From a virus, in IMG/VR virus record IMGVR_UViG_3300044825_001572, positions 1 through 64,000 of that record: 64,000 bases of DNA. One strand, given 5' to 3'. A model generated the notes under the pieces. That model was given only the letters and a program-made list of their open reading frames with translations. It searched no databases and was not told where the DNA came from. Each line of letters starts with the position of its first letter. Position 1 is the first letter of the stretch. The translations under genes and the position numbers were made by a program. This document shows, in pieces, positions 1,789 to 2,830 of the stretch.

Positions 1789-1857
1789 GTGTATGAAGTC
1801 ATTATACAATAAAAGGCACCCGATTTCAAGTGCCCTTGTGTCTGTTTGAGAATTGTC
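1789..1857 (-). promoter_or_regulatory. early promoter/stem-loop cassette, copy 2
   Basis: TTGAAA (1829-1824) N17 TATAAT (1806-1801); GGCAC/GTGCC hairpin over -35; ACTTCATACAC downstream. Confidence 0.75.
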
Positions 1858-2602
1858 TTTTTTTCTTCATCATTCCAAGAACCCATCCTTCACCAGGACA
1901 TTTTACAGACATTTTGTTATTTCCACATCCATCATTCCACCATTTTTTACCATAATTATGGTTTTTTTCACCTTTAATTGTTTCACTATGTTTTCTTTTA
2001 ACTTCTTCATTCCTTCCAGGAAACCAACCCTCACCAGGACATTCTACGACAAATTTTGTATTACCATAACCATCATTCCACCATTTTCTTCCTTTCTGAC
2101 TTTCACTCATTTTACTTTTTCTTTCTATAGAGTGTGGTTTGCCTTTATGAGATTTACTCATTTTTTTTCTCGATTCTTCCGACATTATTTTACCCGTATG
2201 AGATTTACTCATTCTTTTTCTTACTTCTTCAGAATGAGATTTGCCGTACATCGGATTTTTTTCACTAGAATATTTAAGTTTTTTTAATTCACTTTGTTTT
2301 CTTCTGGTTTCTTCACTTATAACAGCACCAGAAGGACCTTCCCCACCATCGGTTTTATTATGAAGAATACCATTTCCCAAATCTTTTCTACCGAACACGG
2401 CAATCATATATTTTTCGTGCCTAAATGCATCTTCTTCTGTTAGGTTCTCTTTTAAGAAGATTATTCTTGATTTGTCTTTCGGTGGTTTTATTTCGTTTTT
2501 ATTTCTTGTATATGCTCTTTTTCCACTACCTTTACCGATATAGTAAGGAGTTTTGTCTTTCCGCAAATATGCGTAAGTATAAAACCTATTAGGATTTACC
2601 AT
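1826..2602 (-). CDS. free-standing GIY-YIG homing endonuclease with NUMOD3 repeats
   Basis: FYTYAY...YYIGKG..R...E...N GIY-YIG motifs; (H/M)SEE.RKKMS.SH.GK repeats; two WWNDG.GN.K..V.CPGEGW repeats. Confidence 0.88.
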   Translation of the reverse strand: MVNPNRFYTYAYLRKDKTPYYIGKGSGKRAYTRNKNEIKPPKDKSRIIFLKENLTEEDAFRHEKYMIAVFGRKDLGNGILHNKTDGGEGPSGAVISEETRRKQSELKKLKYSSEKNPMYGKSHSEEVRKRMSKSHTGKIMSEESRKKMSKSHKGKPHSIERKSKMSESQKGRKWWNDGYGNTKFVVECPGEGWFPGRNEEVKRKHSETIKGEKNHNYGKKWWNDGCGNNKMSVKCPGEGWVLGMMKKKRQFSNRHKGT

Positions 2603-2627
2603 TTCTATTCTATTAAGACGGCATTAT

Positions 2628-2635
2628 TATTTATA
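2628..2635 (-). promoter_or_regulatory. T4-type late promoter for the endonuclease
   Basis: Exact TATAAATA 25 nt upstream of ATG. Confidence 0.75.
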
Positions 2636-2639
2636 ATAG

Positions 2640-2661
2640 AAAAGGTGCCCCGAAGGACACC
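2640..2661 (-). terminator. intrinsic terminator with cUUCGg tetraloop
   Basis: GGTGTCC-TTCG-GGGCACC-TTTT. Confidence 0.75.
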
Positions 2662-2697
2662 TAATCTTATCTGTAGAGATTGCCGTCTTAACAGATG
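2640..2697 (-). ncRNA. candidate ~55-nt late sRNA antisense to the endonuclease leader
   Basis: Own TATAAATA (2709-2702); AUCUGU/ACAGAU stem; terminator; 11 nt perfectly complementary to 2613-2623. Confidence 0.55.
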
Positions 2698-2701
2698 TTA
2701 T

Positions 2702-2709
2702 TATTTATA
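2702..2709 (-). promoter_or_regulatory. T4-type late promoter upstream of the candidate sRNA
   Basis: Exact TATAAATA; 12-bp TATAAATAATAA repeated at 2635-2624. Confidence 0.7.
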
Positions 2710-2830
2710 GTAGTTCATCATCTTCGGGAAGAGAAACAGACATATTCAAAATCTCAAAAAGATTTCGCACATCTTTGAGAGTTTTAATTTTACTTGTGTC
2801 TAATTTATGATTTAGTCGTTGTTTAGTCAT
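2705..2830 (-). CDS. 41-aa hypothetical, possibly truncated (MTKQRLNHKLDTSKIKTLKDV...)
   Basis: Manual translation; its stop TAA lies inside the late promoter. Confidence 0.45.
   Translation of the reverse strand: MTKQRLNHKLDTSKIKTLKDVRNLFEILNMSVSLPEDDELL

Follow-up and report, generated by a model that had tools for sequence, protein, structure and literature searches.

We describe a module of about 110 nt that precedes a homing-endonuclease gene (1826-2602, minus strand) in a fragment of a T4-like cyanophage, and in which one RNA segment, here called the anti-leader, is complementary to the leader of the endonuclease mRNA. The fragment comprises positions 1 to 64,000 of the IMG/VR virus record IMGVR_UViG_3300044825_001572; we refer to this whole 64,000-nucleotide stretch as the window and use its coordinates throughout, and all elements of the module lie on its minus strand. 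From the comparison of homologous sequences, we are highly confident that anti-leader and leader truly pair and that they do so at the level of RNA. The module as a whole is best explained as a portable expression-control module for the homing-endonuclease genes of T4-like cyanophages. We also lean toward the view, again from sequence, that the anti-leader is made as a separately promoted RNA of ~57 nt that would act in trans as well, which is the best single explanation of an upstream late-promoter motif (P1), a 5′ hairpin, the order of the elements and the existence of cassettes that lie antisense to their neighbors.

Reading the minus strand from 2760 to 2590 recovered, in order, P1, a hairpin carrying the anti-leader, a UUCG terminator, a second late-promoter motif (P2), the complementary leader and the ATG (2602-2600), each at the position given for it in a preliminary description of this DNA. 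P1 (2698-2709) and P2 (2624-2635) are the same motif, TATAAATAATAA, that is, TATAAATA(ATAA). P1 forms the left edge of the conserved module and overlaps the stop codon of a 41-aa open reading frame (ORF), and P2 lies between the two complementary arms. The 5′ hairpin, H1 (2669-2696), pairs AUCUGU (2696-2691) with ACAGAU (2674-2669); it starts at the predicted P1 +1, and its loop contains the anti-leader core. The anti-leader, or 5′ arm, is UCUGUUAAGACGGCA (2681-2695), and the leader, or 3′ arm, is UGCCGUCUUAAUAGA (2609-2623), which spans −21 to −7 relative to the ATG and begins approximately at the predicted P2 start. The exact 11-mer complement of the preliminary description, UUAAGACGGCA (2691-2681) within the anti-leader and UGCCGUCUUAA (2623-2613, −21 to −11) within the leader, is present, and the complementarity in fact extends over 15 nt (2695-2681 with 2623-2609); its single mismatch forms a G·U pair solely on the minus-strand RNA. 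The sequence and a terminator scan further identify a predicted intrinsic terminator, AGGUGUCC-UUCG-GGGCACCU followed by UUUCUAU (2636-2662; stem-loop 2662-2643). The positions of P1 and of this terminator define a candidate small RNA, the predicted P1-to-terminator transcript, of ~57-59 nt (2638-2696).

Folding of the predicted transcripts distinguishes three states of the window's module. The predicted P1-to-terminator RNA is strongly structured (−24.6 kcal/mol, z = −4.9), and the minimum-energy fold of an RNA that reads through from upstream is a long helix between the two arms (−46.8 kcal/mol, z = −4.9) that leaves the AUG unpaired. A leader initiated at P2 and folded alone is unstructured (z = 0.4). 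The motif TATAAATA occurs 7 times in the 64-kb window, versus 13.5 times expected from shuffles, and two of these 7 copies are spaced 74 nt apart; the rarity of the motif fits selection against stray late promoters. By within-window statistics, the 11-mer and its complement alone are not significant. The window contains a single copy of the module.

The module can nonetheless be taken as more than chance because it is conserved and co-varies in homologs, and not because of window statistics. A protein-anchored scan of viral contigs yielded 80 loci, 73 of which carry the module with both late-promoter motifs; these reduce to 52 unique sequences, and the full architecture was found in more than 100 contigs and at many insertion sites. 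The arms are nearly wholly different between lineages yet complementary: the 52 unique homologs contain 32 distinct arms, and the duplex energy of a homolog's own arms is −21.9 ± 1.5 kcal/mol, versus −10.6 ± 4.1 kcal/mol for all cross pairs. Gap-free counts, taken from the inner helix end as anchor, show columns 1-10 paired in 50-52 of the 52 homologs, with 3-6 pair types per column. Because the mismatches in the helix core of these homologs are G·U (8 cells) and none are A·C (0 cells), we interpret the arms as an RNA helix on this strand and not as a DNA repeat.

A covariance model of the long helix and terminator gave 99 matches, 71 of them distinct. In the 71-sequence, model-fitted alignment, 91% of cells pair, versus 64.5% after shuffling (reached in 0/500 shuffles) and 34-46% with slid partners; compensatory change was seen in 22/22 tested pairs, and pairing reaches 99.8% in the inner 7 pairs of the helix and 98.5% in the terminator. 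A subset of 13 sequences that MAFFT aligned in register behaves similarly (89.5% of cells pair, versus 73% shuffled, 0/500, and 40-54% for slid partners). RNAalifold found no structure in the plain MAFFT alignment, because the variable arms are mis-registered in it. In the homologs, the helix begins at about the predicted P2 start, ends 1-8 nt (mostly 3-5) short of the AUG and takes in a purine-rich AGAG resembling a Shine-Dalgarno (SD) sequence, and the 5′ arm starts at the nucleotide predicted as P1 +1. The terminator occurs in the homologs as 46 different stems; its tetraloops are GAAA or UUCG, and an A-tract is able to pair with the U-tail. The homolog alignment that the preliminary description had proposed as a check thus bears out its view of twin late-promoter motifs, terminator and inverted pair as one conserved unit, in which the arms co-vary and the architecture of promoters and terminator stays fixed. 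No Rfam family matches the module (best overlapping matches of 16 bits, against thresholds of 50-80), and we found no description of it in the accessible reviews and genome papers.

The module has been exchanged among unrelated GIY-YIG and HNH endonucleases in freshwater and marine cyanophages. Outside the family of the window's endonuclease it stands, sometimes with the same arms, before a Pfam-positive GIY-YIG endonuclease (L020:1229), before HNH endonucleases (L060:4320, L056:267) and before further divergent families. When an 18-mer covering the terminator tail and P2 was used with no gene anchor, 93 of 102 unique instances contained the full module, and 86 of the 87 ORFs that follow 18-mer instances belong to a single endonuclease cluster. 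In the few instances that lack the module there is no anti-leader, and the genes that follow are different ones; two of these instances have long ORFs (238 and 836 aa). Carriers among cultured phages are S-SRM01, B23 and S-B68, of which only S-SRM01 was found by megablast and blastn of the module itself, the others being reached through the protein. S-SRM01 has six paralogs of the endonuclease, two with the module and a third with a variant, using three different arm sets among them. The module is absent from the other 3/6 S-SRM01 paralogs and from the ACG-2014f and S-N03 homologs.

In the variant (subtype 2), a single hairpin replaces the two: the apical loop of the terminator hairpin houses the anti-leader, and the leader arm abuts the AUG. 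Formation of the long-range helix excludes the terminator stem, and vice versa. Examples are L027 (520-640), S-SRM01 at ~77.5-77.6 kb (L125) and Sf-CH5 (L134). A reading of L027 in which a sigma-70 promoter has replaced P1 was dropped, as comparison with L125 and L134 shows just a degenerate P1-like stretch.

Several features of the two-hairpin module point to a transcript of its own for the anti-leader. We gathered modules by P2, the anti-leader and the intervening hairpin, with P1 not required (n = 66), and in 65 of the 66 an [A/C]TAAATA motif precedes the 3′ end of the anti-leader by 20-24 nt. Among the 52 unique homologs, the P1 8-mer is NATAAATA in 44 and NCTAAATA in 8, so that its variation stays within the published cyanophage late-promoter consensus, NATAAATA/CTAAATA (PMC2984593). 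P2 is TATAAATA in 51/52, with the 3′ arm beginning 3-6 nt downstream, a result that applies at the level of the motif, and nTAnTGC follows both late-promoter motifs. P1 also marks the left boundary of the conserved block, and TATAAATA is otherwise depleted in the window. The predicted P1-to-terminator RNAs of the homologs are 49-71 nt long (median 57), and each of the 52 folds into a 5′ hairpin, whose loop contains the arm core, plus the terminator; in 51 the first nucleotide of the RNA is also the start of H1. H1 comprises 22 distinct stems, and in a second covariance model compensatory change affects 6/6 of its pairs, with 90.5% of cells paired (94.6% for the whole structure of that model, versus 71.7% shuffled). 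H1 and the outer part of the long helix compete with each other, and a purely cis design has no need for H1. The terminator lies 3′ of the anti-leader, between the arms, which is the placement required of a separate transcription unit. Cofolding the predicted RNA with the leader of the P2 mRNA gives ΔΔG = −16 kcal/mol net of hairpin opening, a figure that describes thermodynamics only.

Genomic context adds to this picture. In four orthologous cassettes (L033, L034, L039 and L040) the endonuclease gene is antisense to both of its neighbors and, therefore, no co-directional upstream gene supplies the anti-leader; in L039, 37 nt separate P1 from the start of an opposite-strand gene of 551 aa. 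Across these four cassettes P1 and the anti-leader are 93% identical, versus 78-79% for the flank, the terminator and the coding sequence. As a separate observation on one of these loci, L039:1205-5426 contains two converging endonuclease cassettes on opposite strands, with one module each, and the plus-strand cassette is antisense to both neighbor genes.

We propose the following sequence of events. Transcripts entering from upstream would mostly stop at the terminator, and those that read through would hold both arms, so that the ribosome-binding site (RBS) is sequestered in cis; by analogy, this step would follow established precedent. Late in infection, mRNA initiated at P2 would start at the leader, without the anti-leader, and would be translatable. 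Simultaneously, P1 and the terminator would release the anti-leader as a separate two-hairpin RNA of ~50-60 nt, which could pair in trans with the P2 transcripts and damp endonuclease translation. Because of these predicted steps, the cassette would bring its own insulator, promoter and repressor to any insertion site. Whether cyanophage endonuclease cassettes in general carry their own trans antisense RNA, each with a dedicated late promoter and terminator and together amounting to dozens of private RNA/leader specificities, we regard as an evenly balanced question on the sequences at hand. The comparison with an antitoxin made in the preliminary description is unsupported. A type I toxin-antitoxin pair would call for a stable toxin mRNA, a labile antisense RNA and addiction once the locus is lost; the sequence gives no indication of RNA half-lives, and it is not obvious where addiction would fit in a lytic phage.

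The preliminary description had also offered pairing in cis on read-through RNA as an alternative to a trans-acting RNA, and this is certainly possible, since the minimum-energy read-through fold forms the helix and matches the T4 mechanism (PMC2988022). In its strict form, the alternative holds that the anti-leader acts solely on the RNA that also bears the leader, whether upstream read-through or a P1 RNA that passes the terminator, as in I-TevI, segB and Aeh1 mobE. P1 would then give no functional free RNA; it would be silent, yield a by-product or have some other role, such as occluding P2. We consider this a serious contender, although it falls short of being probable. The cis mechanism alone accounts for the complementarity, the precedent for it is established (PMC2988022, PMC3014915), and the long helix is the preferred fold of the read-through RNA. 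A co-directional upstream gene is present in 66 of the 73 resolvable contexts (7 lack one), and of the three single-hairpin variants only one has a canonical TAAATA/P1, the other two keeping the anti-leader without it. Except for the fold, these points weigh against the trans-acting RNA that we favor, as do four more: one two-hairpin module has TATATATA where the P1 motif is expected; it is puzzling that two near-identical late promoters would drive an activating mRNA and, alongside it, its repressor; related sequences are not independent observations; and the covariance alignments were fitted to the structures under test, with the unfitted analyses in agreement. On the other side, a strictly cis role leaves unexplained the near-universal P1 at fixed spacing, the co-varying H1 that competes with the long helix, the location of the terminator inside rather than upstream of that helix, and the top conservation of P1 and the anti-leader in cassettes that have no co-directional upstream gene.

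A different possibility is that the arms matter as DNA. An operator similar to its homing site lets I-TevI repress its own late promoter (PMC2988022), and each arm of the module lies immediately 3′ of a late-promoter motif; the inverted repeat might thus be two operator copies bound by the endonuclease, giving I-TevI-like autorepression at both late promoters. However, the same arms precede unrelated endonuclease families, H1 and the terminator co-vary as RNA, the helix reaches over the SD-like region, and the bias of the core mismatches toward G·U on the sense strand is that of an RNA duplex, so that we judge a DNA operator very unlikely. It would also be conceivable that a promoter was duplicated at integration next to a fortuitous 11-mer, leaving a scar. 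The lack of significance of the 11-mer pair within the window and the microhomology that P1 shares with the target gene at the insertion junction would suit such an accident, but the recurrence of the module in more than 100 contigs and at many insertion sites, with compensatory changes, refutes it, and we give it practically no weight.

Homing endonucleases require expression high enough to spread and low enough to spare the phage, and the known T4 examples use a local hairpin and a late promoter. In the cyanophage cassettes, the T4 logic appears packaged as a portable module of ~110 nt that combines a terminator insulator, a promoter and a repressor element. If the proposed trans-acting RNA is real, it would be the first (trans-acting) class of regulatory small RNA in T4-like phages, and the cassette would be a selfish element that brings its own RNA-based dose limiter. 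In that case, the homologs would supply dozens of naturally occurring, orthogonal RNA/leader pairs.

The nearest relatives of the cis arrangement are the T-even endonuclease genes. In I-TevI, I-TevII, I-TevIII, segB and Aeh1 mobE, long transcripts have their RBS hidden in a helix, and a late promoter initiates transcription within that helix (PMC2988022, PMC3014915). Here too, an RNA helix covers the RBS region on long transcripts, the regulated gene is a homing endonuclease, and a TATAAATA-type late promoter (here known as a motif only) lies at a point from which late transcripts omit the 5′ strand; Aeh1 mobE shares in addition a terminator as a second layer of control. In contrast to these hairpins, the helix of the module is long-range, with a loop of ~57 nt that encloses an intrinsic terminator and a late promoter, and it usually leaves the AUG outside. 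Its 5′ strand comes with a late-promoter motif and a co-varying hairpin of its own, and the module is shared and portable, standing before unrelated endonuclease families in cyanophages.

For the trans mode, the closest analogue would be the c4 antisense RNA of phages P1 and P7, which controls the ant/icd mRNA and lysogenic immunity (summarized in PMC12197685). Like c4, the candidate RNA would be small and structured, encoded upstream of, and on the same strand as, its target, and would pair around the RBS to block translation; in both, paired sequence changes set the specificity. The c4 RNA is processed from the transcript of its own target, whereas a separate promoter and terminator are predicted here, and it serves lysogenic immunity, whereas the module, known from sequence alone, belongs to a selfish nuclease in a lytic phage. 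In the T4-like cyanophage S-PM2, the non-coding RNA CfrI is, like the candidate RNA here, physically linked to a homing-endonuclease gene (PMC2984593), but it measures ~225 nt, traverses that gene and psbA as a transcript of the opposite strand, and no leader-pairing module has been described for it. The module also resembles the PeSL cassettes known from T4-like phages (PMC2839356, PMC4122927) in being a short, conserved, portable combination of a stem-loop and a promoter at the borders of shuffled gene modules, and a PeSL-like element closes the present cassette (1837-1801). PeSL cassettes differ in having sigma-70-type early promoters and no anti-leader/leader pair, whereas the module has two late-type TATAAATA motifs and a co-varying long-range helix; its promoters are not of the sigma-70 early type that, together with a stem-loop, defines a PeSL.

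The gene downstream of the module encodes a protein of 258 aa with four NUMOD3 repeats (Pfam NUMOD3, 4.8e-19, 4 stretches) and an N-terminus with GIY-YIG-like motifs, and it matches PHROG 314, 'homing endonuclease' (1e-15). Its homologs are patchily present and occur in differing genomic contexts. The preliminary description had called it a GIY-YIG endonuclease, and for this assignment the evidence is mixed. YxY...YYIGKG motifs are visible by eye and an E...N region aligns to a bona fide GIY-YIG relative, but the Pfam GIY-YIG domain was not reached, the sole match being LEM-3_GIY-YIG with an E-value of 0.0045, below the cut-off. A PDB sequence search with the endonuclease gave no match, and the AlphaFold model of the N-terminal domain was unusable (pLDDT 46). 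Because of these three results, we label the protein a NUMOD3 endonuclease with GIY-YIG-like motifs. The gene also contains an internal direct repeat of 82 nt (1870-1951 and 2011-2092 in plus-strand coordinates, 78% identity), through which a WWNDG...CPGEGW segment recurs in the C-terminal domain. GenBank labels the NUMOD3 endonucleases of L001 (S-SRM01), L132 (B23) and L134 (Sf-CH5) 'translation initiation factor 2', which is probably an annotation error.

As the preliminary description had supposed, the module belongs to a mobile cassette, and it travels with the endonuclease gene as the left edge of that cassette. The 41-aa ORF (2705-2830, minus strand), whose stop codon TAA (2707-2705) lies inside P1, is the 5′ remnant of a resident target gene that the cassette has cut. 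In endonuclease-free relatives the intact gene starts MT(E/K)QRLNHKLD...; the ORF corresponds to its first ~40 codons and is 59-65% identical to the N-termini of these intact homologs, and endonuclease-free alleles of the same site exist among relatives. DNA homology to the target gene stops at ...GAACTACT|ATAAATAATAA. Between the window and locus L003 the module is near-identical, with identity from ATAAATA onward and unrelated sequence upstream, and for this reason we place the left edge of the mobile unit at P1. At the other end, right after the endonuclease stop codon, lies a 3′ boundary element (1801-1837, minus strand) consisting of a hairpin (GGGCAC...GTGCC) over TTGAAA followed, after 17 nt, by TATAAT. 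Its sequence suggests a PeSL-like terminator combined with an early promoter, which is predicted to be able to restart transcription of the downstream genes. A comparable 3′ end is found in L003, L009, L011, L012, L016, L038, L065 and S-SRM01. A complete copy of the target gene with a strongly divergent N-terminus lies 3′ of the cassette (1626-1069, minus strand), and an orphan 59-aa ORF (1598-1777) is situated between the cassette and this copy. A comparable 5′ duplication is present in S-SRM01 (L001:2394 and L001:3391).

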